Notes: generated by a model from the sequence alone, not told the origin. A stretch of 64,000 nucleotides of DNA from Minisyncoccota bacterium (GCA_965204115.1 OZ241963.1:233293-297292), one strand, 5' to 3'. Counted from the first letter of the stretch, positions 1 to 27,964 are shown. Numbers and translations: made by a program.

Positions 1-45
1 GATACACAGCATATCGGGCATGCTGGTGTTGTAATAAACAGTCAT

Positions 46-387
46 TTGGATAACTATAAAATCGTAAAACCGGAAGAGTTAGATAAAAAAATATTGAATA
101 TATGTGAATCAGAAAAGATAATAACTTTCATATTTCTTGCTGATCGTAAATTAACTCAAGAGGTTTTTTGTGAATATATTCATAAAACAATAGCAGGTTA
201 TGTTGAGAAGGTACCAAACGAATTGCATGGAACAAGTATTCCATTAAAAATTGATAAATACGATTCGCTCTTTGCTGTTTCACTGCCATGGAATGAGATG
301 CCGGAAACACCAGTATTTGGTTCTATGACATCTATCTCGATTGACGGATCGCAATTGATGCTGGGAATAAAAAGAAAAACGACTTAA
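46..387 (+). CDS. hypothetical protein (113 aa), first gene of the AT-rich island
   Basis: Intact ORF in the track; AT-rich codon usage matches the neighbouring genes; no recognisable motif. Confidence 0.35.
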   Translation: MDNYKIVKPEELDKKILNICESEKIITFIFLADRKLTQEVFCEYIHKTIAGYVEKVPNELHGTSIPLKIDKYDSLFAVSLPWNEMPETPVFGSMTSISIDGSQLMLGIKRKTT

Positions 388-444
388 ATAAGGGCAGGGA
401 AGGATAAGATAAGTACTGTTTGAAAGTTTCTGCAGAGTGATACA

Positions 445-1020
445 ATGAGCATGAGTATGATTAGGGATAAAAAATTAAAAGAAGCGGCGGAGATGGGAGA
501 AGGAATTGCAAGGGAGTTCAATCCCGAAACAAACATCCCCTTCCCTTTTGAGGAGATAGTAAAAAGGCACAGAGATTTAGAGTTGAGATCTGGAGATTTA
601 AGCAATGCAGGTTCGCCAATTAGTAATGACTTGTCAGGATTAATTTTGTATGACGATAGCGAGAAAAAATTTGTCATTTTGATTGAGGAGAGTAAGCCAA
701 AAAATAGAAAGTATTTCACGATTGCGCATGAATTGGGGCACTATTTCTTGCATAAGGAAGATCTAAAAGAAAAAAGTTTGGTGGTTGATGGAGATGCAAC
801 ACTCTATAGATTGGATAATGGACTGAGTAACATACAAGAATCACAGGCAAATTACTTTGCTGCTTCACTGTTAATGCCGGAGGATAGGGTTAGAAAAGCA
901 TGGAAGGCTTTTAATGAGGATGTCGAAAAATGTGCGGAATTATTTGATGTCTCTCTATCTGCTATGAGTATACGGGTGGATATATTAGACTTGAAGTATG
1001 AGTATGAAGACAGGAGATAA
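445..1020 (+). CDS. ImmA/IrrE-family (COG2856-like) zinc metallopeptidase
   Basis: HEXXH motif in the context FTIAHELGHYFLHKED, typical of ImmA/IrrE peptidases. A TTGAAA-N15-TACAAT promoter-like element overlaps the first ATG, so the real start may be M3 or M5 and the transcript may be leaderless. Confidence 0.55.
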   Translation: MSMSMIRDKKLKEAAEMGEGIAREFNPETNIPFPFEEIVKRHRDLELRSGDLSNAGSPISNDLSGLILYDDSEKKFVILIEESKPKNRKYFTIAHELGHYFLHKEDLKEKSLVVDGDATLYRLDNGLSNIQESQANYFAASLLMPEDRVRKAWKAFNEDVEKCAELFDVSLSAMSIRVDILDLKYEYEDRR

Positions 1021-1357
1021 AACACGCAAAGAACTTATAGACCATTTTCGAGAATTTGGGAAAATGTTTGAAAAGTCAGATGCAGGCTCAGGGAGCTTTG
1101 ACGAGCGAATGCAAGATTTAGGTGTGCAGGAAAAGGAGAGTGTTATAAAGTGGAGGGATAAATTTTCGAAGTTTATGACAAGGTTTTTAATGGCGCAGTA
1201 TTTTTTTATCCTCTTGTTTTTATTTTTGCAAGGATTTAAGATAGCAGGATTTCACTTAGATAACTATATTTTTTATATCCTAATAGGTGGAACTTTGGTA
1301 CAAAGTTATTTTCTAGTTAGAATTATATTTCAATATCTTTTTTCTTCGAAAAAGTAA
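998..1357 (+). CDS. small protein with a C-terminal two-TM hydrophobic region, overlapping the end of the ImmA-like gene
   Basis: ORF overlaps the upstream gene by 23 nt, suggesting translational coupling. The C-terminus YFFILLFLFLQGFKIAGFHLDNYIFYILIGGTLV is strongly hydrophobic. Confidence 0.35.
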   Translation: MSMKTGDKTRKELIDHFREFGKMFEKSDAGSGSFDERMQDLGVQEKESVIKWRDKFSKFMTRFLMAQYFFILLFLFLQGFKIAGFHLDNYIFYILIGGTLVQSYFLVRIIFQYLFSSKK

Positions 1358-1524
1358 TGTGCATCGCATGTCTCACAATACTTTTTCAGACCCAACGCAA
1401 TCCTATCAATGGCACCTGAGAGTATAAACTTCTGCAATCTGCCTGTTTTCGCTTACGCAACACTAGTGAAGTTTGCGAAAACGGCGGATTTCCTTATACG
1501 CACGACCCAATATATTTTTATTGT

Positions 1525-3204
1525 TTAATTTGTATTTCCTCTTTCTTTTAGTCTTTGAAAAAGAAAGCCAAGCACATCGGAATCTAATCTGTGAGGGAAC
1601 ACAGAAAGAAAAAAAGGGATAAATTCAGGAAATCTTTTTATTGAATCTGGAAGTGTTCTGCCATCAGAAGAGTTTGACTCATCAATCAGGTCCTTCCAAC
1701 TTTTTTCTTTTTTAGGGATTTCTGTCCTGCACTCTCCTTTCTCCGATTGCATTAAATAGTAGTCATATTTGTTATCAAAAACAAACTCCTCAAAATATAT
1801 AAATGATATTTCTCTCCATTGGTCAGATATAAAATCTTTTTGATTTAATCGTGCCATCATTTCTATAATAGGTTTTAGATAATGTGAATACTGTTTACTC
1901 TGATGTTCAAAAGGCTCTTGAGGTACGCCAAAAAACCTATTAACTACAAAATTTAAAACAAAATTTAAATCAAAGTATGGAGGAAGTAGTCCAGTTTCGC
2001 TCTCTGCATTTCTACCATTGTATTTAATTATTTCACTTATAGCGTGTTCCACCAAACTAACACCTTCCTCTTTGCTTTCATCAGAACATGTCAACATCAA
2101 CGCAAGAAGTATGAGAGGCAATAATCCTCCTTCGCCATATAAAAATATACTGCCCCTGTATTTATCAATTATGTCTTTTTGTAGAATATCTTTTATTTGA
2201 ATATTTTTTTGACTGATAACTTCAGACACTTTGAGCGAAAATATCATTGATACAGCACCATGATTGCGAAATGGGATTAAGTTTATTTCGGTTTGTGGTA
2301 ACTTAATCTTATCAAAGGTGTCCCCTGAAAGCATGGCAAGTCCCTTGCTTTCCACCTCTAATTCCAATTTTTTTGCTGTACTTAACATGTCCCCCCATAC
2401 AAGGTTATATGATTTTAACCAATATTTTTCTGCAAGATTATATCTATCAACCAAATAAAAAATTAATGAGAGCAATAAGGTCATAACTCTTATCACAGAA
2501 ACATGATTTTCTTTCTCCCTGTATGGTCCGGTGATCATAGTCATATACAAAATTGCAGCGGATACATCTCTTTTTCGTTTTTCTTTTGCCCTTTCCTCAT
2601 TGATGCCAAGTATTTGACATAAGAATGGAAATATCTCTGACAAATCTACAAAACTTGTTCCATCTGCAAAAATTAAATTGCTGAGGGTTTTATATGCCCG
2701 CGCATCTTGAGGTAAAACCTCTACGGCAATTTCTTGGAACCCTTGTAACAAATCTCCTCTTGTAAGAACTCTGAGTGGCGTGTTTTTCCACCTTCCGTTA
2801 TTTAAACCATTTATATCAGCCCTTACGCTATCATCTATATTTCCATTTGTTACTAAAAATGATATGTGCTTCTTGTTTTGATCTATGTTTGGATGAGCAA
2901 TGGGTATTTCAATTAGCACTTCAACTTCTGGCTTAACCTCAGTGCGCCAACGATGCAGATTTATATTTCCACCTTTCAGTTGATATGCACAAGGCGCTCC
3001 ATTAAAGTCAACGGCAACAACATCTTTTCCTTGTTCAAAGTTGGTATTCTTTATTTCATATTTAACAGCATACCCTTGGAATGAAAGCCACTCGCAAAAT
3101 AATGACTGATAGCTGAGTTCGTTTACTGAATCCAGCCAGTGTTCGATAACCCTTTGTAAAAAGGGTTCGTTTGTTTCTTTTTGTTTTACTGTTTTTTTGC
3201 TCAT
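1525..3204 (-). CDS. large hypothetical protein (559 aa) with an N-terminal PD-(D/E)xK nuclease-like motif; last gene of the four-gene defence-like operon
   Basis: N-terminal EWLSFQGYAV ... KDVVAVDFNGAPCAYQLKGG fits the E / hhhD / (E/Q)xK spacing of restriction-endonuclease-fold domains. The remainder has no recognisable motif. Separated by 2 nt from the upstream gene. Confidence 0.4.
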   Translation of the reverse strand: MSKKTVKQKETNEPFLQRVIEHWLDSVNELSYQSLFCEWLSFQGYAVKYEIKNTNFEQGKDVVAVDFNGAPCAYQLKGGNINLHRWRTEVKPEVEVLIEIPIAHPNIDQNKKHISFLVTNGNIDDSVRADINGLNNGRWKNTPLRVLTRGDLLQGFQEIAVEVLPQDARAYKTLSNLIFADGTSFVDLSEIFPFLCQILGINEERAKEKRKRDVSAAILYMTMITGPYREKENHVSVIRVMTLLLSLIFYLVDRYNLAEKYWLKSYNLVWGDMLSTAKKLELEVESKGLAMLSGDTFDKIKLPQTEINLIPFRNHGAVSMIFSLKVSEVISQKNIQIKDILQKDIIDKYRGSIFLYGEGGLLPLILLALMLTCSDESKEEGVSLVEHAISEIIKYNGRNAESETGLLPPYFDLNFVLNFVVNRFFGVPQEPFEHQSKQYSHYLKPIIEMMARLNQKDFISDQWREISFIYFEEFVFDNKYDYYLMQSEKGECRTEIPKKEKSWKDLIDESNSSDGRTLPDSIKRFPEFIPFFLSVFPHRLDSDVLGFLFQRLKERGNTN

Positions 3205-3206
3205 AA

Positions 3207-3809
3207 TTAATCAATAATTTTTCTTGATTTGACATCTGCCATGTGTTCTTCAAATTTTTTATCTAGTATCTCTTCTTTTTTTCTATCAAATTCAGCTTTT
3301 TCCTGAGGTGTTTGTTTCTTTTCTATCTCCATAAGCCTCTTAGAGACGGTTGGGTGTACAATTAATGACTGTTCGGATGGTTTATTCCTGTCGTCATTGT
3401 GAAAATAAATTTTTACATTTTCCATTCCCTTAAGGATGATGTCTGGACCAACCTCTGAAACATTTACTATGTTTCCGCTGTCAGCCATACTCTTTGCTAT
3501 CGCCTGGATCGCATCTCCCTCAATTTGATTTGCCACATCTGCAGACATGTCGGAAAACATGGTAAGTACATCCTCTGAAGACATATTTCTCATTTGCTTA
3601 GAGGAAATTGACATCTTGGATGAAGCTTCGTTTAGGTGTTCTACACTGTGTGTTCCATCCTCATATAAAACTCCCGTTTTATCGCCCTCATATAAGGACT
3701 GTTTAGGAACCATTGCGAGCAGAGGAGATTTTGTTTTTATCTCTTGTCTTATTGAAATATCGACGAAAATCCTTAGTTTTTCTTTTGCTTTTGGAAAATC
3801 TGGTATCAT
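3207..3809 (-). CDS. hypothetical protein (200 aa), third gene of the operon
   Basis: Intact AT-rich ORF, 27 nt downstream of the DUF262-HNH gene and 2 nt upstream of the 559-aa gene; no recognisable domain. Confidence 0.4.
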   Translation of the reverse strand: MIPDFPKAKEKLRIFVDISIRQEIKTKSPLLAMVPKQSLYEGDKTGVLYEDGTHSVEHLNEASSKMSISSKQMRNMSSEDVLTMFSDMSADVANQIEGDAIQAIAKSMADSGNIVNVSEVGPDIILKGMENVKIYFHNDDRNKPSEQSLIVHPTVSKRLMEIEKKQTPQEKAEFDRKKEEILDKKFEEHMADVKSRKIID

Positions 3810-3836
3810 TCTTGTATTTTACCATCTAACTATACT

Positions 3837-4928
3837 TTATTTTCCAGATTTTCTTCGATTACATTCTTTATATAACATCTGACAGTTTTCTGCGACTGTT
3901 TTACCGCCTTCATGCCAAGGGGTGATGTGGTCGGCTTCCATGTCTTCAATTTCAAAATGCTCTTCACACACCGGGCAGATACCTTTTTGTCTTTCGTATG
4001 CTTCACGCTTCATATTGGGAGTAAAGGCACGGATTGAAAGAGATTTCTCTTGGCGAGTTAAAACATATGGGTAGATGCCTGATTTATCCGTGACATCTTC
4101 ATCTTGCATGAGTCTGGTAATTTCGGTTTCCAATTTTTCGGCATTCAGTTTTTTATCTTTGAATTGGTTGTACAAATCGCCCCATTTTACACCTTTCATT
4201 TCATTACGATAGTTAGTGAAAACCTTGCGCACCCATGTAATGACACTTTGAAAATAATCCCAGAGTTCATTTGCATTATTATCATGCTGGTGTTTTGCCA
4301 TATAGTCTGCGACCTCCCCATCATTGATCCACAAAAGAGCGGTTTCCAAGTACTCTTGCCTGATGGGTGAACCTTTTATGAGTGACCCTCCATCATTTGC
4401 TAAAAGATACGCTGCACAACCTGTTTTACTGAATTTTAATTTTGCGTCAGAGAGCCATGGGCCGGTGTAGACCGCGTTTCTGATCTCTTGATCCGTTAAT
4501 TTTTCGCCTGCGATATTAATGGTAAAGAACCAATCCAAACGCTCTTTGTCTGTGCCTTCACAAAAGTAAATCATAAGTTCGTAGTCAAGAATCTGTTTCT
4601 GCTCTTCGGCAGTGAGATTGTGAAAAAAGCGGTCGTTGAGCAAGAAGTCACCATTTACATACTGTCCGATACTGATGGTACGCTGCTGTCCGTCCAACAT
4701 TTCATAGGTGCCATCTCCCTTAACCATCCAGTACATCACATTAAGGGGGAAATTTTGTTTGACGGTCTCAATAACCGCATTGCGCTGTTTGTCGTCATAG
4801 ACAAACTCTCTCTGGTATTTTGGACGAACATCCAATTTGCCATCATAGGCAACAACGCCTTCTTCTTTACTATCTTTATACCCTTTAACCACATCACGAA
4901 CTTTGATTTTCTCTAAGTCAATTTTCAT
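3837..4928 (-). CDS. DUF262 (GmrS/ParB-like NTPase) + C-terminal HNH nuclease fusion; GmrSD-like / type IV restriction-like protein
   Basis: DUF262 signatures KYQREFVY and DGQQRT. C-terminal HNH: CPVCEEHF...DHITPWHEGGKTVAENCQMLYKECNRRK. Confidence 0.7.
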   Translation of the reverse strand: MKIDLEKIKVRDVVKGYKDSKEEGVVAYDGKLDVRPKYQREFVYDDKQRNAVIETVKQNFPLNVMYWMVKGDGTYEMLDGQQRTISIGQYVNGDFLLNDRFFHNLTAEEQKQILDYELMIYFCEGTDKERLDWFFTINIAGEKLTDQEIRNAVYTGPWLSDAKLKFSKTGCAAYLLANDGGSLIKGSPIRQEYLETALLWINDGEVADYMAKHQHDNNANELWDYFQSVITWVRKVFTNYRNEMKGVKWGDLYNQFKDKKLNAEKLETEITRLMQDEDVTDKSGIYPYVLTRQEKSLSIRAFTPNMKREAYERQKGICPVCEEHFEIEDMEADHITPWHEGGKTVAENCQMLYKECNRRKSGK

Positions 4929-4929
4929 A

Positions 4930-5979
4930 CTATTTTTTGTTTTTGATTAAGATACGCTTAAACTTCTTTTTTCCACTGATGTAAATTGCATTTGCAAACG
5001 AATATACACCGTCCGCTCCAACCGATCCTACATGACCAATGATTTCAAATTGTTTGGGGTTGTATTTGTCCACAAAGGTTACAGGCACACCCATTACACC
5101 ACTATAATCCATCGGGATGTCAGTATATTTGTCTATATTGATTGCATCATAGTTATCATATTTTGGATATTCTTTTGGAGTGTATTTTTTATATAGAGTC
5201 AATTCCTCGTGACGCTTGGCGACATCTAAATTGGTAAACCATAAGATGCTGCCCATACTGAAGTACTTAATACCGTCCTCAACTTTGATTCTGGATTCGG
5301 TTTGAATGTCGTAATCCTCAGGCACTTGAAACCATTTGGTTCCGCCGTTATCGTACCCCAACCATAATCGGTTTTCCTTGATAAACTTAAAAATTTCTTT
5401 GTAAGTAATGGCGTTTTGATTCCCTAGGATCAAAAATTCCTTTTGGTGTTCCATTAGTTGTGCAACATAGTCTCGAAAAAGCGAAAACGGTGGATTGGTT
5501 ACCACTATATCTGCCTGTTTAAGCAGGCTGATACACTCATCGCTGCGAAAATCTCCATCACCTTTAAGCGGTGTGGCAACATTGGCGTCTTGTCTTAGTA
5601 ATTGCTTAACATCTCCTAAACTAACCGCTCCGTCATTATTGAGGTCTTTAACTTCGTTAATCTCAATTCTAAATGGCTCTTTTCCTTCTGGCTTCAATCC
5701 TTCTATCTCAACGAGTGGTAATTGCCCGCCAGCAATTGGTGATCTTATGTAGCTTGTGGCAATGAGTTTTTTAAGTCCTAAGGCATTAAAACTGGCAGCA
5801 AAATACTTGAAGAAATTACTTTCATAAGGGTCATCGCAGTTACAATATACAACCTTACCGCGGAACTGCTCTTTATAGTGTCTTAGTTCTTTTTCAATGT
5901 CAACAAGTTGAGTGTAAAACTCATCCTTTTTTGCCTTAGCTGCCTGGTGAAGACCTGTATTGTTCACTTTTGTATCCAT
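4930..5979 (-). CDS. N6-adenine DNA methyltransferase (NPPF catalytic motif IV)
   Basis: IVVTNPPFSLFRDY is motif IV ((D/N)PP(Y/F)) of amino-MTases. N-terminal DEFYTQ and CNCDDPYES resemble the EcoRI-methylase-like adenine MTase family. Stop lies 1 nt before the next gene. Confidence 0.65.
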   Translation of the reverse strand: MDTKVNNTGLHQAAKAKKDEFYTQLVDIEKELRHYKEQFRGKVVYCNCDDPYESNFFKYFAASFNALGLKKLIATSYIRSPIAGGQLPLVEIEGLKPEGKEPFRIEINEVKDLNNDGAVSLGDVKQLLRQDANVATPLKGDGDFRSDECISLLKQADIVVTNPPFSLFRDYVAQLMEHQKEFLILGNQNAITYKEIFKFIKENRLWLGYDNGGTKWFQVPEDYDIQTESRIKVEDGIKYFSMGSILWFTNLDVAKRHEELTLYKKYTPKEYPKYDNYDAINIDKYTDIPMDYSGVMGVPVTFVDKYNPKQFEIIGHVGSVGADGVYSFANAIYISGKKKFKRILIKNKK

Positions 5980-6175
5980 ACATTAATATGGTACATTGCT
6001 TTTACTTGTTTTTATTATTCCGCATTGAACATATAAAGCAGTAGCGCCCCTTGTGGGGCCTGGTTCGTATTTGGGAGCATGAATTAAAAGGAGACGGCAA
6101 AACCGCCACAAGAAAAATCTAAAAGTTTTTCAAGTATTAGCTGCTTATTCACCCTCACATTATTTGTTCAAGTCT

Positions 6176-6772
6176 TTACCTTTCTGGCGGACGAGGATGC
6201 AAACTACTTACAGGTATGTTTTTTTCTCCCAGTACGACATCCCTTAATCCTATTGCCATTATCACAGCAAATTGCTCAACCTCCCTTCCTTCACTAAACA
6301 GGTATTCTTTTATTTTCTTTAACTCGGGTGAAGCGTCATTTTTACTTTTTAATATTTCTTTCACAATATCTTTTGATTTTTCCTGTATATCAAAAGCACC
6401 GTCAACATTTTTAAACTTTTCTATCAGGATGTCCTTATTTTTTTTAATGTAGTCTTCAGCACCACTGTTACGAAAAGTTTCCTTTCCAACATCAGTGAGG
6501 GACAGAGGGCTTTGGGTTGCAACTTCTTGCCTTCCTTTCATTTGATTTAACTCTTTTGAGTTTTCTTTTACATCATCCTCAAGGGTTTTTATTTTTTTGT
6601 CCGCATTTTCCAAATTTGTCTCAAGTACACTTAATTTTACTTTCATTGTTACTAACGCAACAACAAGTGCTATAGCTGCAGACACTCCGAGGTCAATAAG
6701 CGAAGGCAGAGAGTTGGTATTACTGGCAGCAGATTCAGAGGTAGATTGAGCTATTACTTCAATAGGAATCAT
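6176..6772 (-). CDS. membrane-anchored coiled-coil protein, hypothetical
   Basis: N-terminal TM helix (LGVSAAIALVVALVTM) followed by a K/E-rich heptad-like sequence. Confidence 0.35.
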   Translation of the reverse strand: MIPIEVIAQSTSESAASNTNSLPSLIDLGVSAAIALVVALVTMKVKLSVLETNLENADKKIKTLEDDVKENSKELNQMKGRQEVATQSPLSLTDVGKETFRNSGAEDYIKKNKDILIEKFKNVDGAFDIQEKSKDIVKEILKSKNDASPELKKIKEYLFSEGREVEQFAVIMAIGLRDVVLGEKNIPVSSLHPRPPER

Positions 6773-6983
6773 ATGTTCAGTTTAACATAAACCAATTGAT
6801 TATACAAGAATATGTGGACACTGGTGACATGATTGATATGTTGAGTACATGATGCTGGATAACCTATAAATGGCGGGTTAATTAAAGTCTATATTTCTGC
6901 TACCCTGTTGCACGGAGCGGAGCGGAGATGGTGCAGTGTTTGTGTACACAATCGCTGCACTGTTTTGAATGGGCGAGGAGGGT

Positions 6984-7673
6984 TTATAAAATAGATGTAA
7001 ATAGGTTGTGGTATTTATCAAGATAGTGAGACAATTCTTTTCTCTTGTACTGCATGATGTAGCGTGGGTGTTCTAATGAATGCACCCTGTTGAACCATTT
7101 GTACTCTTCATTCAGTTCGGTAAAAAATTTATAATTTTTTCCGGATCCGAGAATGATGACGGCATCACTTCTGACACCACATTCAAACTGTGCAAGCAGT
7201 GAATTGACAATAAACGGCTTAAGCATTGTCTGCATTTCTATGCTGTCATAGTAATTATAGTTCTTGCCATGCTGTGTGAAGCCAATTGGCGACACTGCGG
7301 TGAGAAAAAAATTGCTGTAAAATGTTTCTGCTCCTCCGAATTTTTCAATAAAGGTGTACAGGAACTTTGATGAGAGTTCACGACGCTCCTTAAATGTGTT
7401 TGGAATATCACAGTGCTCAGAGAGTGCGATTGGATCGGTGAAAGGGATTCCGGTAACACCTGATCCGAATCTCCCCGGGTTAATACCCAGAACAAAAACC
7501 CTTTCATTGGTATCGTAAAAATACTTTTTTAAAAACATCTTTACATACTTAAAAATTTCCCCATCTTTATGCGGCTCTATTGCTTCAACACCACTTATCG
7601 TGATTTCAGGGACACATACATTTTCGAAGAAGTCAATAATTTTGTCATAGAAAGTTTTTTGGCTTGATAACAT
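6984..7673 (-). CDS. uracil-DNA glycosylase superfamily protein, SMUG-like
   Basis: LGINPGRFGSGVTGIPFTDP closely matches the SMUG1 catalytic motif GMNPGPFGMAQTGVPFGE. A second His-containing motif (HPRY) lies near the C-terminus. Confidence 0.55.
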   Translation of the reverse strand: MLSSQKTFYDKIIDFFENVCVPEITISGVEAIEPHKDGEIFKYVKMFLKKYFYDTNERVFVLGINPGRFGSGVTGIPFTDPIALSEHCDIPNTFKERRELSSKFLYTFIEKFGGAETFYSNFFLTAVSPIGFTQHGKNYNYYDSIEMQTMLKPFIVNSLLAQFECGVRSDAVIILGSGKNYKFFTELNEEYKWFNRVHSLEHPRYIMQYKRKELSHYLDKYHNLFTSIL

Positions 7674-7837
7674 GTCATTCCTCCGTGTTCACAATGATCA
7701 AGTGTTTTATAGCAAAAACACTCCACACCTCATTTTATCACACAGATAAATCTTTCAGAGAGACGGTTTGTCCAACTTGTTTACCTATTCCCTAAAACAT
7801 AACAAGGGGCAGCCGATGGCTGCCCCCATAAATTTGT

Positions 7838-8230
7838 TTATGCTTCTACACCTTCATCATCTTCGGACGACTCATCCTGCTCATCATATCCTACTTTCCA
7901 TAGAGAAAATATCCAGGGAAGGAATAAAAATATCATTATTATGTGAATATAGTAGGCACCATACTTACTCATTTCATGAAGGCCTCTCGGATCAAGCGAT
8001 TCGCCAGACATGTCAATGAATATCACAGGAGGTAATCCGAAAACTATAATCACATAATGCAGTGCTAACGGTATCCAAGATATGACAAGGAAATGATTAA
8101 TCAGCCATCCAGCAAAACGACCGAGTTTGGAGGACGGGTATCTTGATGTCGTGATAGCATAGCATGCAACACCGACCGCAAACAAGATGTACAACTCTTG
8201 TGGTGCAAAGTGGTACTTCACACTTTCCAT
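7838..8230 (-). CDS. integral membrane protein, hypothetical (130 aa)
   Basis: Multiple hydrophobic helices with an acidic C-terminal tail. Confidence 0.35.
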   Translation of the reverse strand: MESVKYHFAPQELYILFAVGVACYAITTSRYPSSKLGRFAGWLINHFLVISWIPLALHYVIIVFGLPPVIFIDMSGESLDPRGLHEMSKYGAYYIHIIMIFLFLPWIFSLWKVGYDEQDESSEDDEGVEA

Positions 8231-8232
8231 AA

Positions 8233-8430
8233 TTAAATACCCTTACCTTTTTTGAAAAAACGCTCATAGATCCATTCGACAAAGGGATCGTTTGCAGCCA
8301 TGATTGTCACGACAACGCATGACAATACAAATATTCCTCCAATCGTATTTGTAACTGGCAAAATAAACAAAAGCACTATTACACAAGGTACCCCAATAAA
8401 TACATATGTCATCCATTTAAAGCGCTTCAT
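8233..8430 (-). CDS. small membrane protein, hypothetical (65 aa)
   Basis: Two hydrophobic helices; 2 nt upstream of the 7838..8230 gene, operon-like. Confidence 0.3.
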   Translation of the reverse strand: MKRFKWMTYVFIGVPCVIVLLFILPVTNTIGGIFVLSCVVVTIMAANDPFVEWIYERFFKKGKGI

Positions 8431-8619
8431 TGGATAATACCTCCTTTTAAGAGATTAAATGTAGTACATAGAAATGAACATACTAGTAATAGTATACACT
8501 GTTATGCTAAAATGCCTTATTTTGTCATATTATGAATCTGTCAGAGAAAAAGATTGGCTGATTTTTCAGGACATCATTTTTTATTATGAGATAGTGGTAT
8601 ATACTATACTTTGTCTATT

Positions 8620-8691
8620 GGCCCCATCGTCTAGCGGCTAGGACGCCGCCCTTTCACGGCGGAAACCGGGGTTCGATTCCCCGTGGGGTCA
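8620..8691 (+). tRNA. tRNA-Glu (anticodon TTC)
   Basis: Manual cloverleaf: acceptor GGCCCCA/TGGGGTC, D-arm GTCT-AGCGGCTA-GGAC, anticodon stem CCGCC/GGCGG with loop CTTTCAC, T-arm CGGGG-TTCGATT-CCCCG, discriminator A. CCA is not encoded. Confidence 0.8.
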
Positions 8692-8737
8692 CATTTTGGT
8701 GGTGTTATGGTTATCGTGTTGTACGACACCTACTCTG

Positions 8738-8818
8738 TTCGGTTTCCGCCTACGGCGGTCTGATAGTCAGGTTTTTGTCAAAGCCAAAAACAGGGGGTTC
8801 GATTCCCCGTGGGGTCAC
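8738..8818 (+). pseudogene. tRNA-Glu-derived remnant: near-identical T-arm, 3' acceptor and trailer, anticodon stem with a 3-nt loop, no 5' acceptor
   Basis: GGTTCGATTCCCCGTGGGGTCACATTT.GGTGGTGT at 8671-8720 recurs at 8790-8840. The CCGCC-TAC-GGCGG stem is retained, but there is no D-arm or 5' acceptor strand. Confidence 0.4.
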
Positions 8819-8851
8819 ATTTCGGTGGTGTGGTGGCTGTGGTGTTGCTCA

Positions 8852-10000
8852 TTATTGCAGCGGCAGGCGGATTATTTTGTCGTCTCTGGGTTGGGTTGTG
8901 CCTCTGCCGTCGGTGTTGCTGGTTGTTATGTAGAGCATGGCATCCGGACCGATGATGGTGGTGCGGATTCTTCCGAATTGTTTGTGATGGTATCTTTGTA
9001 TTTCCGTTATTGTTGTGCCGTTTAGTACTGCTTTGTATACTGCTTCTCCGCGCAATCCTCCGAAGTAGATACTTCCGTTGTGGTATGCGGCACCTGCCGG
9101 TGCCCAGGTGATATTTGCACCGGAGTGTGCTTTCGGTCCTTCGGTTCCCTGCTTCACTTCGTCACCCTGGCTGTCAGGCCATCCATAGTTGCTGCCTGCG
9201 GTGATGAGGTTGACTTCATCAAGACCTGAGCGTATGCCTGAGCGTCCATGTTCGGTGCTCCATAAGTTCCCTTCTGAATCCCAGGTTATTCCCTGCGGGT
9301 TGCGGTGTCCGTATGAGTAGATTGGTGAGTTGGGAAAAGGGTTATCGTTCGGAATGGAGCCGTCATCGCGTAGGCGCAGTATTTTTCCCGCGAGTGAGTT
9401 GGTGTCTTGCGCGAGGTTTGGTTTGCCCGCGTCTCCGGTGGTTATGTATAGGTGGGTGTCGGGGCCGAATGCAATGCGACCGCCGTCATGGTATCGGGCG
9501 CCGGGAATGTCGTCTATGATAACCAGTGGCCCTGTGAGTGTTTCATCTTGGTAGGTGTAGCGTTCGACTTTGTTTTTTGTTGTGCCGTCGGGGAGTGCCT
9601 GATAGGTGTAGTACAGGTATAGGTAGTTATTTTCTGTAAATTTCGGATGTAGGGTCATGCCGAGCAGTCCGCCTTCTCCGCTTTCATACGAGCCGACTGT
9701 ATGTATCTGTCGTTTTTCAGTTTCTGTAATTAGCAAGATGTTGCCACTTCTCTCACTGACAAGCATGGCACCATTCGGTAAAAACACGATATCCCAGGGG
9801 ACATGTAAGTTATCAGCGATGATCTGCGGTGCTTGCTGTGTTTCATCAGTATCTGCGGCGGTATCTACGGCTGTGGTGTCATTTGTAACCGTGTTTATAT
9901 TGGTAGATTCCGGTTCTGGCAATACAAAAAGATTGGCGCGCGGAAGTATGAAATATAGCACGAGCGCACAGAGGATGCCTATACCGAGTAACCGTTTCAT
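8852..10000 (-). CDS. secreted PQQ-dependent glucose/sorbosone dehydrogenase-family beta-propeller protein
   Basis: Signal peptide. IADNLHVPWDIVFLPNGAMLVSERSG and repeated G-rich blades are typical of the soluble aldose sugar dehydrogenase (YliI/GSDH) family. Confidence 0.55.
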   Translation of the reverse strand: MKRLLGIGILCALVLYFILPRANLFVLPEPESTNINTVTNDTTAVDTAADTDETQQAPQIIADNLHVPWDIVFLPNGAMLVSERSGNILLITETEKRQIHTVGSYESGEGGLLGMTLHPKFTENNYLYLYYTYQALPDGTTKNKVERYTYQDETLTGPLVIIDDIPGARYHDGGRIAFGPDTHLYITTGDAGKPNLAQDTNSLAGKILRLRDDGSIPNDNPFPNSPIYSYGHRNPQGITWDSEGNLWSTEHGRSGIRSGLDEVNLITAGSNYGWPDSQGDEVKQGTEGPKAHSGANITWAPAGAAYHNGSIYFGGLRGEAVYKAVLNGTTITEIQRYHHKQFGRIRTTIIGPDAMLYITTSNTDGRGTTQPRDDKIIRLPLQ

Positions 10001-10645: not shown

Positions 10646-13600
10646 TTATACAATGTCCGCGACAATTTTTGCGGTCAGTTCGTCACTCTCTATGGTAAAT
10701 TCAGTGCCCTCCTCCGGACTTGTCGCAACATAGGCGACGCTGCGTACCCGCACCTCCTGTTTTATTTTCTCTTCGTGTGCCTGTATATGTTTTAACTGCT
10801 CGGTAGGTATGTGTACCGACAGTGTGTCTGCTGTTCGTGTCGGTGAAAACCCTTTTTCTTTTCGTATTTTTTGGATATTGCGAACATACTCGCGTACGAA
10901 TCCTTCGGCGCGCAGTTCGTCTGTCAGCGTGGTGCTGAGCTCAATTGGCTTGGCAGCGGCAGGGTCAACAACCACCTCTTTCACATTCACCTCATCCCGA
11001 ATCAGTGCCTGCTGCTCCTCGTCAACTTCCTGCTGCACGATGACTTTCTGCAATGGCTGCCGCACCTTGATTCCCGCTTCCGCCCGCTGTTCGTGTGCCA
11101 CCGATACAATATCCCGCACCACAGCTGTTTTTTCTATCGCGTCTCTTTGAAACCACATTTTTTGCGGCCACTTTGTGAGGTGGACACTGTCCGGCAAAAA
11201 CATTTTTTGCGGATGGTGCTTTCGCATCTCTGAGAATAGGTGCTCGGCGTAGAATGGCGCGACCGGCGCGAGGCATTTTGCAAACTCGGTCAGGATGAAC
11301 CGCAGGGTCTCCCGCGCTTCCGCACCGTCGTCCGTTCGGTTCTTTATCCTGTCTCGTGAGCGGCGGATGTACCAGGTTGATAAGTCCTCCACAAATGCGC
11401 CGATTGGCGCGACTGCTTCGTCGATGTGGTACGACTCAAGCCCTTTCGTCATTGCATCCCGCATTTCAGCAAATCGGGAGCAGATATACTCGTCCAATAA
11501 GCTTCTGCCGCCCCGCTTGTGTGGTAGGTGCGCGTATATTAAATAGAATTTGAGGCAGTTATGCAGCCGCGCGTACACTTTTTTGTATACCTCATCAACC
11601 TGCTCATCCCGAAAATCAAGATCTTCTCCGCGCACCACCGGCGAGCCGAGGAGGTAGTGTCGCAGTGAATCCGCACCGTATCGATTAATGATCTGCATTG
11701 GGTCGGTGTAGTTTTGCAAACTCTTGCTCATCTTTTTACCGTCCGCGGCGCGAATTAAGCCGGTTACCACCACCTGCCGGTACGGCGACCGATCAAACGC
11801 TCCGACCGCGATCGTCATCAAACTGTAAAACCATCCTCGTGTTTGATCCAGCCCCTCACAGATGAAATCTGCCGGAAATCCGCGGCGCAGCAGCGGGTTA
11901 AAGATTCGCTTGTTCTCAAACGGATAGTGGTGTGATCCGTACGGCATCGCCCCTGATTCAAACCAGCAGTCAAATACCTCTTTTGTGTGGTACGCCGGGT
12001 TGCCGTCTGCGTCATTGAGCACCACCTCATCAATGTACGGTCGGTGCAGGTCAACCTCGCCGTTTTCATCCCGCCTCACATGCACATAGCGAATGGGGCA
12101 CACGCTCGCGTTGGCAAGCGGTTTTAAGATGGTGGTTTTTCTGTAGTTTTTTTGAAACTGTGCTTTGGTCGGCGCGATGGAGCGTGCCGTGTTGACAACC
12201 GCCCGATGGGTAACCACCACGATGTTCGCATCCTGATACTCTCTGTCCACTTTTTCAAAAAATCGCAGGATTCGTCCGTAGATGTCTAAAAATGATTCAC
12301 CGCCATCAATGGACTTGCTCATATCACGAAATGCGCCGACTTCGCGGATTGCCCGCCATAGCTCCTGCACCGGTCGATTATGTAAATTCGGCACCTGTAG
12401 TTCGGTCAACAGCGGCTCTTCAATCATTCTCGCGTCGGTCTCTTTTGCAATGTACTCTGCTGTTTCTTTCGTGCGGGTGAGCGGTGAATGAAAAATGATG
12501 GTCGGTTTCATGGGCTTCAGTTTCTGCGCCGTCTTTGCTGCCTGCTCTCTTCCCTTTTCGGTTAAGCCATCCCCCGGTTCTTTTTGACAGTTCAAAACAT
12601 TTTTTTCATTACTCACCGACTGCCCGTGTCGCACAAAGAAATAGCGGTTTCTCGGACGCATTTTTGCGTACATCTCTTCCAGCGAGCCGACGATGATGTG
12701 CTCTCCTGTCTTCTCCACCTTCCACGCCGGTATCGGCGCGCCCCAGAAGCGGTTTCGCGATACCGCCCACTCCCGCGCTCCGGCAAGCCAATTGCCGAAC
12801 CGTCCGTCCCGAATATGCCCCGGTACCCACTTGACCTTTTTGTTCTCGGCAACCATGCGATCTTTGATTTGTTCCGAATGCACAAACCACGAATCGGTGG
12901 CATAGTTCAGCAGCGGTGTTGTGCATCGCCAGCACACCGGGTAGGCGTGCTCTATCGGCTCGCTGTGCAGTAGCAGACCTTTGTTCTGTAAATCTTGGAG
13001 TATTTTTTCGTCCACTGTTTTTGTGTTGCCCGCTTCTTTCGGACGCAAGCCGGCATACTCTTCCAGCTGCGGCACAAACACGCCGTCTTTCGTCACATGG
13101 TGTCGAATCGGCAGTCCCTCCTTCTCCGCGGTTTCCATGTCGTCGGCTCCGTATGCCGGTGCGAGGTGTACAATGCCGGTGCCGACCCCCTGCTCAATAT
13201 ATGGCACCCGCTGCACGCGCCATAGTTTCTTTTTTACCTGCGCATCGTCTTTGGCGTAGAGGTGGTCGAAGGGTGGTGTGTACTCTTTTCCGACCAGTTC
13301 GGAACCCTTTTTTGTCCCTGTGGCTGTGCCGCCGTCCACGATGTGTGCTGCGTCCTGATGCAGGATATATTTCTTTCCTTCCCGCTCGACGACCGCATAC
13401 TCCATACTCTCGTCCACACCGAGTGCGACATTGCCGAACAGTGTCCATGGCGTTGTTGTCCACGCAACGAGACAGGTGTTCGGATCATCTTTCAGCGGAA
13501 ATAGCACATACACTGCCGTGTCGGTCAGCGGCTCATAGCTATCCGCGACCTCTGCGTTGGAGATGACCGTCGAGCAGCGCGGACACAGGTGTAGTGACTT

Positions 13601-14167
13601 GAAGCCATTGCTCACCAAGCCCCGCCGGTGCAGCCGATGAAAGACTGACCACACCGATTCCATATATGGTGTGTTGAGCGTGCGATAGTCGTTCTCCATG
13701 TCCACCCACCGACCGATCCGCGGAATAATCTGTTTCCACTCGTCCACATAGGTAAAGATGGTGTCGCGAATACCGCGGTTAAATTTTTCTATGCCGTATT
13801 CTTCAATGTCCCGCTTTGTCTTTGTCCCGATTTTTTTCTCCATTTCCACCTCAGGCGGCAGTCCGTGGCAATCCCATCCCCACCGACGCAGCACCTGATA
13901 CCCCCGCATCGTCTTATACCGCGGCACCACATCTTTCACGATGCTCGCCAAAATGTTGCCGAAATGCGGCAGTCCCGTCGCGAATGGCGGGCCGTCGTAC
14001 ATAATAAATTGTCTTTTCGGGATGAGTTTTTGTGTTATTCGCTGCAAAAAGCTTTTTTTCTCCCGCCCCTCACTCTTTTCAAAAATGCTGTTTTCCCGCC
14101 AAAACCGTAGCACCCGTTCCTCCCGACCGGCAACCGTTTCCCGTTTTTCGCCTCCCTTTTCAGCCAT
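10646..14167 (-). CDS. ileS: isoleucyl-tRNA synthetase, type 2, carrying an inserted histidine-phosphatase-like domain
   Basis: PPFATGLPHFGNIL (HIGH region), WAVSRNRFWGAPIP, DLHRPYIDE and KMSKS are present. 1173 aa is ~130-150 aa longer than typical type-2 IleRS, due to the RHGQ...VVVTHRAVV block between the PIPAW and DLHRPYID segments. Confidence 0.9.
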   Translation of the reverse strand: MAEKGGEKRETVAGREERVLRFWRENSIFEKSEGREKKSFLQRITQKLIPKRQFIMYDGPPFATGLPHFGNILASIVKDVVPRYKTMRGYQVLRRWGWDCHGLPPEVEMEKKIGTKTKRDIEEYGIEKFNRGIRDTIFTYVDEWKQIIPRIGRWVDMENDYRTLNTPYMESVWSVFHRLHRRGLVSNGFKSLHLCPRCSTVISNAEVADSYEPLTDTAVYVLFPLKDDPNTCLVAWTTTPWTLFGNVALGVDESMEYAVVEREGKKYILHQDAAHIVDGGTATGTKKGSELVGKEYTPPFDHLYAKDDAQVKKKLWRVQRVPYIEQGVGTGIVHLAPAYGADDMETAEKEGLPIRHHVTKDGVFVPQLEEYAGLRPKEAGNTKTVDEKILQDLQNKGLLLHSEPIEHAYPVCWRCTTPLLNYATDSWFVHSEQIKDRMVAENKKVKWVPGHIRDGRFGNWLAGAREWAVSRNRFWGAPIPAWKVEKTGEHIIVGSLEEMYAKMRPRNRYFFVRHGQSVSNEKNVLNCQKEPGDGLTEKGREQAAKTAQKLKPMKPTIIFHSPLTRTKETAEYIAKETDARMIEEPLLTELQVPNLHNRPVQELWRAIREVGAFRDMSKSIDGGESFLDIYGRILRFFEKVDREYQDANIVVVTHRAVVNTARSIAPTKAQFQKNYRKTTILKPLANASVCPIRYVHVRRDENGEVDLHRPYIDEVVLNDADGNPAYHTKEVFDCWFESGAMPYGSHHYPFENKRIFNPLLRRGFPADFICEGLDQTRGWFYSLMTIAVGAFDRSPYRQVVVTGLIRAADGKKMSKSLQNYTDPMQIINRYGADSLRHYLLGSPVVRGEDLDFRDEQVDEVYKKVYARLHNCLKFYLIYAHLPHKRGGRSLLDEYICSRFAEMRDAMTKGLESYHIDEAVAPIGAFVEDLSTWYIRRSRDRIKNRTDDGAEARETLRFILTEFAKCLAPVAPFYAEHLFSEMRKHHPQKMFLPDSVHLTKWPQKMWFQRDAIEKTAVVRDIVSVAHEQRAEAGIKVRQPLQKVIVQQEVDEEQQALIRDEVNVKEVVVDPAAAKPIELSTTLTDELRAEGFVREYVRNIQKIRKEKGFSPTRTADTLSVHIPTEQLKHIQAHEEKIKQEVRVRSVAYVATSPEEGTEFTIESDELTAKIVADIV

Positions 14168-14240: not shown

Positions 14241-16808
14241 TTATTGAGAGGTTTTACTGAGGTCTCCGATGGCGACCCAGCCCTCTTCGTAGCTTACGGG
14301 TGGTGCCTGTTTTTCTCTCTTTGGTGCGACTTTGAGATCTTTTTGTAGGCCGGTTGATTTTGTTGATTTTACTAAATCACCCAATCCGCCGCTGATGTTT
14401 GGGCGTGGTTGCGGTTGCTGTTTTTTTGGTGCTTCCTGCTGTTTGTTTTCTGTATCCGGCTTTGTGACCGACTGCTCGGTCGGTGGTGGCGCTGCCATAC
14501 TGCGTGCAATGGTTCCGGTGATCACGCCGTTTGGTCGGCGGACGGTGTCGGGTTCCTGCTGCTGCCTTTCCTGCCTTCTTCGCTGAGTCAATCTTTCATT
14601 TTTTGCTAATCTGTTTCTCTCTTGCTTTGTTTGTGCGATTGGCTTGTGCGAAGGTGTCTGCCTTTGTGTGTTCTGCCGGGGGTGTTGTGGCCTTTCCGAC
14701 TGCTGGCGCCTGTCCAGTGCAGGAGTTCTACCTCTCTGCCTTTCAGTGTTTCTGTGCTGCTGCGGTTTGCGTTGCTCGGGTCGCTCAGGTCGCTGTCTAC
14801 TGTTGTTGTGGCGTGTGTCATTTCTTTCTCTTTGGGAGGGGCGCTTGTTTCTTAGTTCGCGCGGCCTTTCAGGAGCGGCATCTCGTGTGCGCTGTGGCGC
14901 AGTGTTTCTTGGTTCACGCTCCTGCCGTCTTTCGTTTCTTTTGCGGTCGGTGCGCTGTGGTTTCTGTATGTCCGCTTTGCGAGTATCTCTTTGTATATTC
15001 ATACCATCGTCTTTCTTTTCGGACACAGCAGGCGTGATGGGGTACTCTTTTTTCTCTTTTGGTTCGTGTGCTGTCTTCTGTGCCGGTGTTGGGGTTGGCG
15101 CTGCTTCAGTACTTTCTGTATCTGACACCGGCTCCGGCTCCGGTTGATTTCGTTTGAAAATTCCTTTGAGTAGCGGCGCGCGCTTTTTTTCAGTGCTTGC
15201 TGCATCTGCTCTCTCATCTCTGCTGTCTGCTTTGCTGTCTGTCTTAACGATAGGGACCGACTTGGCATCTTGTTTTTCTGCCTTGGCTTTGCTGTCGTCT
15301 TGTGCGGTTTGTTTTTTCGGCTTTTCTGTTTTTTGTTTTTCGGTATTCGTCTGTCCGCTGCCGTGTTGCTGTATCTGTTGCACTAATCCTTTCAGCGGGG
15401 TGTGCGTCTCGTTTCCTTTTTGGCCGCCCTGTTTCTTTCTATCAGAGCCCTGCTGTTTGCCGCCTTTCCCTGTTTTTTCTTTTGCCTTTTCATCCTCCGC
15501 CAAGTTATCCGCGACTATTTTTTCTATCACATCCCGGTCAACGCCGTAGGTGTCCATTGTCCGCTGCACCACCTCTTCTTCCATTGAATCTTCAGTCGGC
15601 GGCGGCTCAAAGAAAGTTCGCGCAGAAAACGGCACAGACCCCGCGCCGTCAATGTTCAAGGTGAGGTAGATGTGGTATCGTGGCAGCGCGACTAAGTCCT
15701 CCTCCGCGATGTCCGGCGCGAATTGCTTTGAGATAATTTCCGCGTCAACCGGACCAACCCGAAACGATACAAAGGTGCCGACATTGCCGAACACTGCATC
15801 CCGAATCGCGTCTCCTCCGCCGGTGTCATCGGTATACAGCTGCCCTAAATACTGGTGCGCCATCACCAAATTCAGCTTGTACTTCCGCGCCTCGGATAGG
15901 ATGTCGGAAAAAGAGGAGTTTGCGAATGATTGGAACTCGTCAACGAAAAAGTTGCACGGGTTTGCTGCTTCCAGATGGGCGCGATCCAGATCGCTCCGTG
16001 ATAGTGCGGCGAGGTAGATTTTGGTCGTGAACAACACGCCGAGCATGCGCGCGTTGTTCTCGCCGACCTGCCCTTTTGAAAGGTTTACCAGCAGTATCTT
16101 CCCTTCATCCATAATCTCCCGAAAATTAAACGCTGACTTTTCCTGCCCGATGATGTTTCGCATCAGCGGGTTGGAGGTGAACTGTCCGAGCTTGTTTTGG
16201 ATGGATGGTGTCGCCTCCTGTGCGTACCGCTCGGTATAGTTTGCGTATTCCTCAACCCAGTATTTCCGCACCTGCGGGTCTTTCAGGTTGGCAACCACCT
16301 TTTCACGAAAATCTTTGCTGGAATACATCCGCCCCACATCAAGCAGCGTTGTTCCCGGATACTCAATCAACGCCAACAGTGTGTTCTGTAAAATGTACGC
16401 CATTCGATCCGACCAAGTTCCCGCTCCCCAAATCTTTTCAAATGAGGCCATTAAGCTGCTTACCACCAAATGCCGTTTATCGTATCCGATGTCCTCCATA
16501 ATGTTCAGCCCAATCGGTTTTTCCTGGTAGTGCGGTGCGAAGTAGATGATCTTGTCCAGATGCTCCGGTGTCACATACTTCAGCAGTGCCTCAACGGATT
16601 GACCGTGCGGATCCATAAATATCAGCCCGGTGCCGTTGCGAATGTCCTGCATCGCCAGCATTTCTAACAGCGTTGACTTTCCGGTTCCTGTCTGCCCGAT
16701 GACATAGATATGCCGTGACCGATCCTTTTCCTTAATGCCGAAGCGCACGGTATTCCCCCGCTTTTCTAATTCTCCCACTTGTACTATTCTTTCAGGATCG
16801 TATGCCAT
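14241..16808 (-). CDS. TraD/TraG/VirD4-family type IV coupling-protein-like ATPase (cytoplasmic, no N-terminal TM) with a long charged low-complexity C-terminal tail
   Basis: Walker A YVIGQTGTGKST and Walker B NFFVDEFQSF. The AAA-like fold resembles T4SS DNA-transfer ATPases. Residues ~438-830 are K/E/R/Q/P-rich and disordered. Confidence 0.5.
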   Translation of the reverse strand: MAYDPERIVQVGELEKRGNTVRFGIKEKDRSRHIYVIGQTGTGKSTLLEMLAMQDIRNGTGLIFMDPHGQSVEALLKYVTPEHLDKIIYFAPHYQEKPIGLNIMEDIGYDKRHLVVSSLMASFEKIWGAGTWSDRMAYILQNTLLALIEYPGTTLLDVGRMYSSKDFREKVVANLKDPQVRKYWVEEYANYTERYAQEATPSIQNKLGQFTSNPLMRNIIGQEKSAFNFREIMDEGKILLVNLSKGQVGENNARMLGVLFTTKIYLAALSRSDLDRAHLEAANPCNFFVDEFQSFANSSFSDILSEARKYKLNLVMAHQYLGQLYTDDTGGGDAIRDAVFGNVGTFVSFRVGPVDAEIISKQFAPDIAEEDLVALPRYHIYLTLNIDGAGSVPFSARTFFEPPPTEDSMEEEVVQRTMDTYGVDRDVIEKIVADNLAEDEKAKEKTGKGGKQQGSDRKKQGGQKGNETHTPLKGLVQQIQQHGSGQTNTEKQKTEKPKKQTAQDDSKAKAEKQDAKSVPIVKTDSKADSRDERADAASTEKKRAPLLKGIFKRNQPEPEPVSDTESTEAAPTPTPAQKTAHEPKEKKEYPITPAVSEKKDDGMNIQRDTRKADIQKPQRTDRKRNERRQEREPRNTAPQRTRDAAPERPRELRNKRPSQRERNDTRHNNSRQRPERPEQRKPQQHRNTERQRGRTPALDRRQQSERPQHPRQNTQRQTPSHKPIAQTKQERNRLAKNERLTQRRRQERQQQEPDTVRRPNGVITGTIARSMAAPPPTEQSVTKPDTENKQQEAPKKQQPQPRPNISGGLGDLVKSTKSTGLQKDLKVAPKREKQAPPVSYEEGWVAIGDLSKTSQ

Positions 16809-19089: not shown

Positions 19090-19129
19090 AAACCTGACCA
19101 TAGCCCTATAGCAGCGCTCACCTTAAGCG

Positions 19130-19324: not shown

Positions 19325-19347
19325 AAAAGTGGTATACTCACTTCATC

Positions 19348-19433: not shown

Positions 19434-19505
19434 GGCAGTTCTGTGGTGTGTACCGAGGATTGTGTATTAGTAAAAATGTGAAGCAGATATGGTATACTTT
19501 TGTTA

Positions 19506-27525: not shown

Positions 27526-27592
27526 CTTTATAATAGCGATATCTGCTATACTGGTGTAGGATTAATCTCTCTAGAAAAGGAGGAATATTCTG

Positions 27593-27955: not shown

Positions 27956-27964
27956 TGCTTTATG

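Follow-up and report, generated by a model that had tools for sequence, protein, structure and literature searches.

In type II restriction–modification (R-M) systems, the methylase marks self DNA with N6-methyladenine (m6A) and the nuclease cuts incoming DNA that lacks the mark; to our knowledge, little is known about phage defence in bacteria of the Candidate Phyla Radiation (CPR). Olokun, a two-gene system in which a PD-(D/E)xK nuclease of ~550 amino acids (aa), OloB, forms a complex with a helical partner, acts as a 2:2 OloB–OloA complex with a reported mass of ~278 kDa (bioRxiv 10.1101/2025.07.10.664194). Here, we analysed 64,000 nucleotides (nt) of one strand of a Minisyncoccota bacterium (GCA_965204115.1, OZ241963.1:233293-297292), a stretch hereafter called the window, the first ~8600 positions of which form an AT-rich block carrying an R-M pair and, directly next to it, a two-gene cassette for a putative nuclease of 559 aa and a partner of 200 aa. 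We estimate at about 0.7 the probability that this block is acquired, R-M-bearing accessory DNA containing a mobile nuclease cassette. As an island it is unremarkable, and its main interest lies in the uncharacterised cassette; it also documents acquired restriction/defence cargo in an ultra-small (~0.66 Mb) CPR genome, in which each added kilobase comes at a cost.

The base composition of the block was compared with that of the remaining window, hereafter the core. The GC content was 37.1% (0.371) at 1–8600 and 49.3% (0.493) at 8601–64000; all eight 1-kb windows in 1–8000 fell between 0.34 and 0.40, those of the remainder between 0.42 and 0.55, and in 2-kb windows the block mean of 0.371 lay ~4.5 standard deviations (SD) below the remainder (0.493 ± 0.027). 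The raw tetranucleotide distance to the core was 0.038 for the block and 0.019 ± 0.0026 for core windows (~7 SD higher), whereas the base-composition-normalised tetranucleotide correlation was 0.50–0.66 for the block against 0.77 ± 0.09 for the core, with a few core windows equally low. The normalised separation being the weaker one, the difference between block and core is therefore mainly an effect of GC content and codon usage. The GC content at third codon positions (GC3) of all 11 open reading frames (ORFs) of the block (0.26–0.42) did not overlap with that of 25 core ORFs (0.46–0.61; 11/11 and 25/25, Mann–Whitney p = 1.3e-6), and both base composition and codon usage of 1–8600 differ from those of the core, as expected of a horizontally acquired island. 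The last ORF of the block stops at 8430, and the 200-nt GC profile rises from 0.29 at 8400–8599 to 0.52 at 8600–8799, which sets the right edge at ~8600, within an AT-rich spacer that presumably also holds the promoter of the adjoining tRNA-Glu gene. At the other end, frame +1 already runs open at the first base and continues to 387, and the GC content stays low up to the left edge; the first gene and the block therefore run past the left edge of the window. The initial annotation, made from the sequence alone, had described an AT-rich first ~8.5 kb with AT-rich codon usage in every ORF, an edge close to tRNA-Glu and a possible extension upstream, and had proposed a GC and tetranucleotide profile as the check; the profiles bear out each of these descriptions, the composition is not uniform across the window, and the qualification to be added is that the normalised tetranucleotide signal is weaker than the raw one. 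Separately, shorter and much weaker patches of moderately lowered GC (0.42–0.43) were seen at 55001–57000, 19001–20000 and 35001–36000, one of which adjoins tRNA-Thr (57099–57172) and another tRNA-Tyr (19348–19433).

One complete known defence system, the R-M pair, was recognised in the block by the PADLOC models. The methyltransferase (MTase) matched Pfam PF13651 (EcoRI_methylase) over its full length at 471 bits and PADLOC MTase_II at 434 bits. The product of the following gene, a candidate restriction endonuclease (REase), matched Pfam GmrSD_N (62.5 bits) and HNH (47 bits), carries a DH...N motif, was matched over its full length by PADLOC REase_II (PDLC03418, 459 bits), and has an HNH region that matches PDB 4h9d. 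The stop codon of the MTase gene abuts the REase start, both genes are co-oriented, and the same MTase-then-REase pair, at 52–62% identity, is found on plasmids of Bacillota, Bacteroidota, Pseudomonadota and Actinomycetota (Macrococcoides, Chryseobacterium, Aeromonas, Sulfitobacter, Gordonia, Variovorax and others). An MTase with its catalytic motif and an adjacent, co-oriented endonuclease gene, in a pairing kept elsewhere, are the constituents of a type II system, and the pair is predicted to be a known, promiscuous type II R-M module with its catalytic motifs intact. Known pairs, such as those of Sulfitobacter indolifex plasmid pDSM14862_g, Aeromonas caviae and Gordonia plasmids, belong to the same families and share the gene order and the abutting or overlapping gene ends; unlike these plasmid pairs, that of the window is chromosomal in a CPR bacterium and stands in one operon with the 200/559 cassette. 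The REase also resembles GmrSD, BrxU and SspE (PMC10952713, PMC4619093) in its DUF262 ParB-like domain, its intact DGQQR motif and its C-terminal His-Me finger nuclease, but its nuclease domain is a classical HNH (PF01844) rather than DUF1524, it is half the size, and its gene is operonic with a methyltransferase. A GmrSD-type (type IV) identity was rejected because the protein gave no DUF1524 match, ends in the PF01844 HNH and has its own methylase; by its domain content and operon, it is predicted to serve as the restriction subunit of a type II pair and not as a modification-dependent enzyme.

The cassette continues the same minus-strand operon: 27 nt separate the REase gene from the 200-aa gene, and 2 nt lie between the stop codon of the latter and the start of the 559-aa gene. 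Neither protein belongs to a family in Pfam, PADLOC, NCBIfam or PHROG. In the 559-aa protein, E57, K60, D61 and Q75-L76-K77 are invariant in 50 homologues and form a D...QxK site, which is also used by MspJI. Its AlphaFold2 (AF2) model is confident (predicted local distance difference test, pLDDT, 89), and in Foldseek searches the nuclease domain matched those of MspJI and NucS with a probability of 1.0, with further matches to FokI and N.BspD6I, the best being MspJI, a modification-dependent enzyme. On the modelled fold, an alpha-beta-beta-beta-alpha-beta core with conserved acidic and lysine residues, the N-terminal domain is assigned to the PD-(D/E)xK superfamily, although the likeness to MspJI, EndoMS/NucS, FokI and N.BspD6I is confined to the nuclease domain at 12–18% identity and no Foldseek E-value was ≤0.001. 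For the remaining ~400 residues, which are all-alpha, neither fold nor sequence comparison revealed a solved relative, and searches of PDB sequences with profiles of both cassette families found nothing. The AF2 model of the 200-aa protein reached a pLDDT of only 71 and gave no solid fold match, and no Pfam domain was found among 24 members of its family; this weak model resembled HK97-type capsid/encapsulin shells, repeatedly but marginally.

The distribution and neighbours of the cassette argue that it is a module in its own right. A word index gave 69 homologues of the 559-aa protein, and its profile, searched against 1.84 billion representatives, matched at least 1,475 clusters at E ≤ 1e-3 and 692 at E ≤ 1e-30; among the 150 best cluster matches, nearly all were 510–570 aa long and aligned end to end. 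Twelve genomic contexts were inspected, namely the window and loci L037–L040 and L042–L048. The small gene immediately preceded the large gene in 12 of 12: homologous genes of 198–205 aa lie directly upstream of it in L037–L040, L042–L044, L046 and L048, and the small gene was called shorter in L045 (157 aa) and L047 (158 aa). Homology to the 200-aa protein was established by alignment for L037–L040 and L042 and by profile comparison for L046 (probability 99%). At five other loci that were compared, the cassette had 33–40% GC, with flanks of 46–55% in four of them, where it is a small AT-rich insert in the host genome, and with both cassette and flank at ~40% in L040. R-M and methyltransferase genes recur among the neighbours, as a co-oriented HinfI-type R-M immediately upstream in L042, a type III R-M together with a serine recombinase in L043, a Dam methylase in L037, and Mrr, a D12 methylase, DUF7690/7687 and a serine recombinase in L040. 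HSDR_N and AAA_15 proteins accompany the cassette in L044, UvrD and a DUF262 protein in L047, and a STAND/TIR-like protein with IS110 in L048. In L046 (IMGVR_UViG_3300050335_000119, 14–9039), a divergent cassette (198 + 535 aa) lies between a QatABCD-like set (KAP NTPase, QueC-like, TatD) and a DUF262 protein; that contig is classed as viral, yet the 14–9039 stretch looks like a defence island.

The cassette is thus a conserved mobile two-gene module that in most sampled contexts lies beside defence or mobile genes. It is compact, constant in architecture, AT-rich where measured (though flank-matched in L040), and missing from Pfam, PADLOC, NCBIfam and PHROGs. Since defence genes are its neighbours in most of the 12 contexts, the guilt-by-association pattern typical of mobile defence modules, it makes a promising candidate for a new defence system; and since the neighbouring R-M types differ and several contexts are without R-M, it appears to be autonomous and not an R-M subunit. 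That it is a true anti-phage system we hold to be a little less probable than an even chance. Equally tentative, and somewhat short of even odds, is the wider proposal that the 200/559 pair founds a widespread anti-phage system outside the libraries and literature searched, in which a nuclease with a novel helical domain would be controlled by the small partner, whose capsid likeness may suggest capsid mimicry or sensing.

Olokun is a described system of similar plan, and the two were compared gene by gene. The mass of the 2:2 complex leads to an estimate of OloA as a large, adaptin-like protein, whereas the cassette partner has 200 aa; and unlike in Olokun, the helical mass of the cassette is fused to the nuclease. 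The PADLOC OloB profile was weakly matched by nine of the 50 cassette nucleases (best E 5.4e-6), and the family representative P0100, which is outside this set of 50, was co-linear with OloB over ~100 N-terminal residues. None of the 10 most divergent cassette nucleases matched OloB, and OloA had no match in the 200-aa protein or in 23 other members of its family. Membership of the cassette in Olokun was rejected, as there is no OloA and the window protein itself does not match OloB; at most, the profile matches point to a remote Olokun relative with a different architecture. If the cassette is a defence system, it would represent a new nuclease family, possibly such a remote relative with a different partner.

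Taken as a whole, positions 1 to ~8600 would form the right-hand portion of an accessory island, mosaic in make-up, that a small CPR genome acquired horizontally. Its core would be the four-gene minus-strand operon of the MTase, the DUF262-HNH endonuclease, the 200-aa and the 559-aa genes, in which the MTase would mark host DNA and the DUF262-HNH nuclease would cut unmarked incoming DNA. We infer that the 200/559 pair can act by itself as a mobile, nuclease-based module for defence (or addiction), in which the 559-aa protein would be a metal-dependent DNA-cutting effector and its helical C-terminal region, together with the small partner, would restrain or direct it. The edges of the island would be formed by an ImmA-type protease with a small membrane protein on one side and by a SMUG2-like glycosylase with three small membrane proteins on the other. 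The initial annotation had called the block a horizontally acquired defence island packed with defence-type genes. This reading is supported in part, by the foreign composition, the R-M pair and a cassette found mostly beside defence or mobile genes. The other genes are not demonstrably defensive, and of the two or more clustered systems that make a defence island, one known system and one candidate, the cassette, were seen; 'packed' was overstated, as the defence-finder run with PADLOC returned only the R-M pair as a complete system.

How the block came to its present place was weighed from its boundaries. If it were native, that is, a vertically inherited low-GC region, the extension of the host's extreme ACGT avoidance into the block (0 sites vs 10–29 expected) and a normalised tetranucleotide correlation only moderately below that of some core windows would be natural; against this are the 12-point GC gap, the step within ~200 nt, the complete GC3 separation, the patchy occurrence of both gene pairs across phyla, the plasmid-borne R-M pair and a cassette that is a low-GC insert in four unrelated genomes, so that we regard a native block as highly improbable. 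Insertion by a tRNA-targeting integrase at tRNA-Glu, as the initial annotation had implied, is suggested by the block's end 20–190 nt from this gene, and by a direct repeat that could be an attachment-site scar. This 54-nt repeat, beginning GGGGTTCGATTCCCCGTGGGGTCACATTT, comprises the last 25 nt of tRNA-Glu, exactly from the T-arm on, and 29 nt downstream, and occurs just twice in the window vs 0 copies expected by chance. Attachment sites attL/attR at tRNA genes likewise usually start within the tRNA and pass its 3′ end, and tRNA-associated genomic islands share with the block an atypical GC content, accessory/defence cargo and an edge beside a tRNA gene. However, classical tRNA-targeted elements sit 3′ of the tRNA gene, whereas the block adjoins the 5′ (promoter) side; both repeat copies lie 3′ of the tRNA and enclose 72 nt at ~50% GC, leaving the AT-rich block unbracketed, with the repeat on the far side of the tRNA; there is no third copy in the window; no integrase, recombinase or transposase was found among the ORFs of 1–8600 with Pfam, NCBIfam and PHROG; and the 54-nt att-like block had no match to a viral contig in IMG/VR. 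With the block 5′ of the tRNA, no integrase, and the repeat downstream of the tRNA, tRNA-targeted integration is therefore not supported and is, in our judgement, quite improbable; the adjacency to tRNA-Glu is real, and it is the implied mechanism that fails. The repeat, which lies outside the AT-rich block, is better read either as a scar left by another tRNA-targeting element, since lost, or as a tRNA gene duplicated in part. The interval 8722–8822, made up of the spacer and the second copy, folds into a tRNA-like cloverleaf (z −2.6); a real tRNA in the second copy was rejected, ARAGORN making no call and Rfam giving only a sub-threshold tRNA-Sec match of 18.7 bits.

More weight can be given to the possibility, still on the unlikely side, that the block forms one end of a larger integrative element, a prophage remnant or a remnant of an integrative and conjugative element (ICE), that reaches upstream and carries the R-M pair and the cassette as cargo ('moron') genes, which would be compatible with acquired accessory DNA. 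The ImmA protease would then be part of an ImmR/ImmA-type switch, and the membrane and coiled-coil proteins would be remnants of a lysis module. Proteases of the ImmA type are typical regulators of prophages and ICEs, and that of the block matches phage PHROGs 1914, 2439 and 87; the 198-aa protein ORF198 combines a transmembrane segment and a coiled coil with an Rz-like spanin match, two small proteins have multiple transmembrane segments, the first ORF and the low GC content continue past the left edge, and the cassette is found beside phage lysis enzymes in L038 and serine recombinases in L040 and L043. Yet the 8.6 kb contain no structural, replication, integrase or endolysin gene, the block DNA has no match in the phage collection, the ImmA protease, ORF198 and the glycosylase are without IMG/VR relatives, and the spanin and DUF948 matches of ORF198 are below threshold. 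For the cassette itself, a role as a selfish toxin–antitoxin or addiction module, or as an R-M accessory such as a second, modification-dependent nuclease, in place of an anti-phage function, would fit the tight coupling of two genes with the small one first, the methyltransferase or R-M neighbours in the window, L037, L040, L042 and L043, and the modification-dependent MspJI as best Foldseek match. We consider it a minority option, somewhat less likely than the integrative element: the neighbouring R-M types are as different as type II HNH, HinfI-type, type III and an orphan Dam, L038, L039, L046 and L048 lack any R-M, and toxin–antitoxin and defence functions are not exclusive.

Several results weigh against the block as an acquired island with a defence cassette. 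Its left end is beyond the window, it carries none of the integration genes searched for above, and no flanking repeat brackets its visible part, the sole significant repeat lying wholly to its right. The nearest relatives of the flanking glucose/sorbosone dehydrogenase (GSDH) found by genome and metagenome scans are at most 63% identical, and none is syntenic. The defence hidden Markov models recognise only the one system, and the palindrome statistics of the genome show no depletion of GAATTC, CAATTG or AATT, so that these sites give no independent sign of R-M activity or of the recognition site. The window's 559-aa protein has no OloB match at E ≤ 1 and is unmatched in the plasmid and phage collections, L038 (with phage lysis enzymes), L039 and L045, three of the 12 contexts, are without a recognised defence neighbour, and all the evidence for a defence role of the cassette comes from neighbourhood and domain content. 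The glycosylase, finally, looks like an ordinary repair enzyme.

Table. Features of the AT-rich block and of its right-hand boundary (positions in the window)
Feature	Position	Strand	Remarks
3′ part of an ORF open to the left edge, at least 128 aa	1..387	+	GC3 0.26
Stand-alone ImmA/IrrE-type (Peptidase_M78) zinc metalloprotease, 191 aa	445..1020	+	HELGH at residue 95; no helix-turn-helix (HTH) domain
119-aa protein, about two C-terminal hydrophobic segments	998..1357	+	23-nt overlap with the ImmA gene
Large cassette protein, 559 aa, predicted N-terminal PD-(D/E)xK nuclease domain and all-alpha region	1525..3204	-	
Small cassette protein, 200 aa, mostly helical	3207..3809	-	
Candidate type II restriction endonuclease, DUF262/GmrSD_N (ParB-like NTPase) and C-terminal HNH	3837..4928	-	DGQQR at residue 79
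N6-adenine DNA methyltransferase, EcoRI family	4930..5979	-	NPPF at residue 162
198-aa protein (ORF198), one N-terminal transmembrane segment and coiled coil	6176..6772	-	DUF948 and Rz-like spanin matches, sub-threshold
SMUG2-like member of the uracil-DNA glycosylase (UDG) superfamily	6984..7673	-	GINPG at residue 63; HPR at residue 202
Small membrane protein, 130 aa	7838..8230	-	Hydropathy
Small membrane protein, 65 aa	8233..8430	-	Hydropathy
AT-rich spacer, 29–32% GC, carrying the right-hand compositional edge	8431..8619		200-nt profile
tRNA-Glu, anticodon UUC	8620..8692	+	ARAGORN; Rfam RF00005, 61.9 bits
54-nt direct repeat	8668..8721 and 8794..8847	+	Copies 89% identical, 72 nt between them

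The genes at the two edges of the block were compared with the same libraries. The partial first ORF had no match in Pfam, PADLOC, NCBIfam, PHROG or plasmids. The ImmA protease matched Pfam PF06114 at 75 bits, PHROG metalloprotease, PADLOC capP at 105 bits over profile positions 3–150 of 242, and RmrA at 47 bits over profile positions 178–291 only, the protease part. An M78 zinc-protease domain with HExxH is common to this protein, the ImmR–ImmA switches, CapH–CapP of the cyclic-oligonucleotide-based anti-phage signalling system (CBASS) and RmrA of RosmerTA, but the window protease has neither an HTH domain nor one of their partners in the window, its downstream partner being a small membrane protein. 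With Pfam and PADLOC, no HTH, CD-NTase or RmrT was detected in 1–8600, so that of CBASS CapH/CapP and RosmerTA the protease domain is all that was found. The 119-aa gene is probably co-transcribed with the ImmA gene because of their 23-nt overlap; its product and the two small membrane proteins at the other edge had no family match in Pfam, PADLOC, NCBIfam or PHROG, and ORF198 had no relatives in plasmids or IMG/VR.

The UDG matched the Pfam UDG family at 47.9 bits and PDB 5h0j/5h0k at E 1.5e-57 over residues 6–227, with ~50% identity (by eye), and gave weaker matches to SMUG1 structures. The PDB entry is itself titled 'Uncharacterized protein', and we take it to be the SMUG2 of Pedobacter heparinus. 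No match to the UDG or to the ImmA protease was found in IMG/VR. A SMUG2 DNA glycosylase of P. heparinus has been described (Pang et al. 2017, cited in PMC8307549). The window UDG matches 5h0j/5h0k over its full length with the GINPG and HPR motifs conserved, and is encoded in a low-GC island of a CPR genome. By similarity and by motifs 1 and 2, it is predicted to be a member of the SMUG2 subfamily. A UDG that lies near the cassette in L042 was considered as its kin and rejected as unrelated. The gene labels of the initial annotation (an M78/ImmA peptidase, an m6A MTase, here placed in the EcoRI family, a DUF262-HNH nuclease, a large PD-(D/E)xK protein, a SMUG-like UDG and small membrane proteins) all held, and the block is, as had been stated, free of housekeeping genes, in that none of its genes is clearly essential.

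To the right of tRNA-Glu lie genes for GSDH, RecO, an IleRS-type synthetase, a HerA/TrwB-like ATPase, ClpB and RpoD. The best relatives of the GSDH are in metagenome-assembled genomes of Patescibacteria/CPR, at no more than 59–63% identity, and the host is read from them as a small Patescibacteria (CPR) genome; the source contig of 661,662 bp fits a complete CPR genome. In none of the GSDH relatives found by the genome and metagenome scans does tRNA-Glu lie next to GSDH. The host avoids ACGT: eight sites occur in the 55.3-kb core (20531, 24681, 29835, 33277, 35632, 37859, 47597 and 56722) against 214 expected from base composition or 92 from a Markov model, and none in the block, where 29 or 10.3 are expected, respectively. 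The same ban was found in cassette and flanks of a CPR contig of 724 kb that holds the closest homologue of the cassette (67% and 52% identity); in the CPR contig behind L037, two sites were observed vs 56 expected. Cassettes of other hosts keep some ACGT sites. The avoidance suggests ACGT-specific restriction as a long-standing pressure on this lineage. Shared by the block and the closest cassette homologue, the ban favours one of two histories: either the donor was an ACGT-avoiding, lower-GC member of the Patescibacteria or one of their mobile elements, or the block has long resided where the same restriction pressure acted on it. CTAG, TCGA, GGCC and CATG are also depleted in the window.

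Three further observations were made in the flanking DNA. The IleRS-type class I aminoacyl-tRNA synthetase (1173 aa, 10646–14167, minus strand) contains an in-frame His_Phos_1 domain at residues 510–691 (108 bits), which splits parts of the catalytic domain and is an unusual fusion or insertion. Adjoining it among housekeeping genes is the HerA/TrwB(VirD4)-like ATPase (855 aa, 14241–16808, minus strand), which matches DUF87, TrwB_AAD_bind and TraG-D_C and may be a coupling protein for conjugation or DNA translocation. A cluster of five tRNA genes at 27454–28408 comprises Cys, Leu-UAA (on the minus strand), Lys and two Leu-UAG genes ~45 nt apart.

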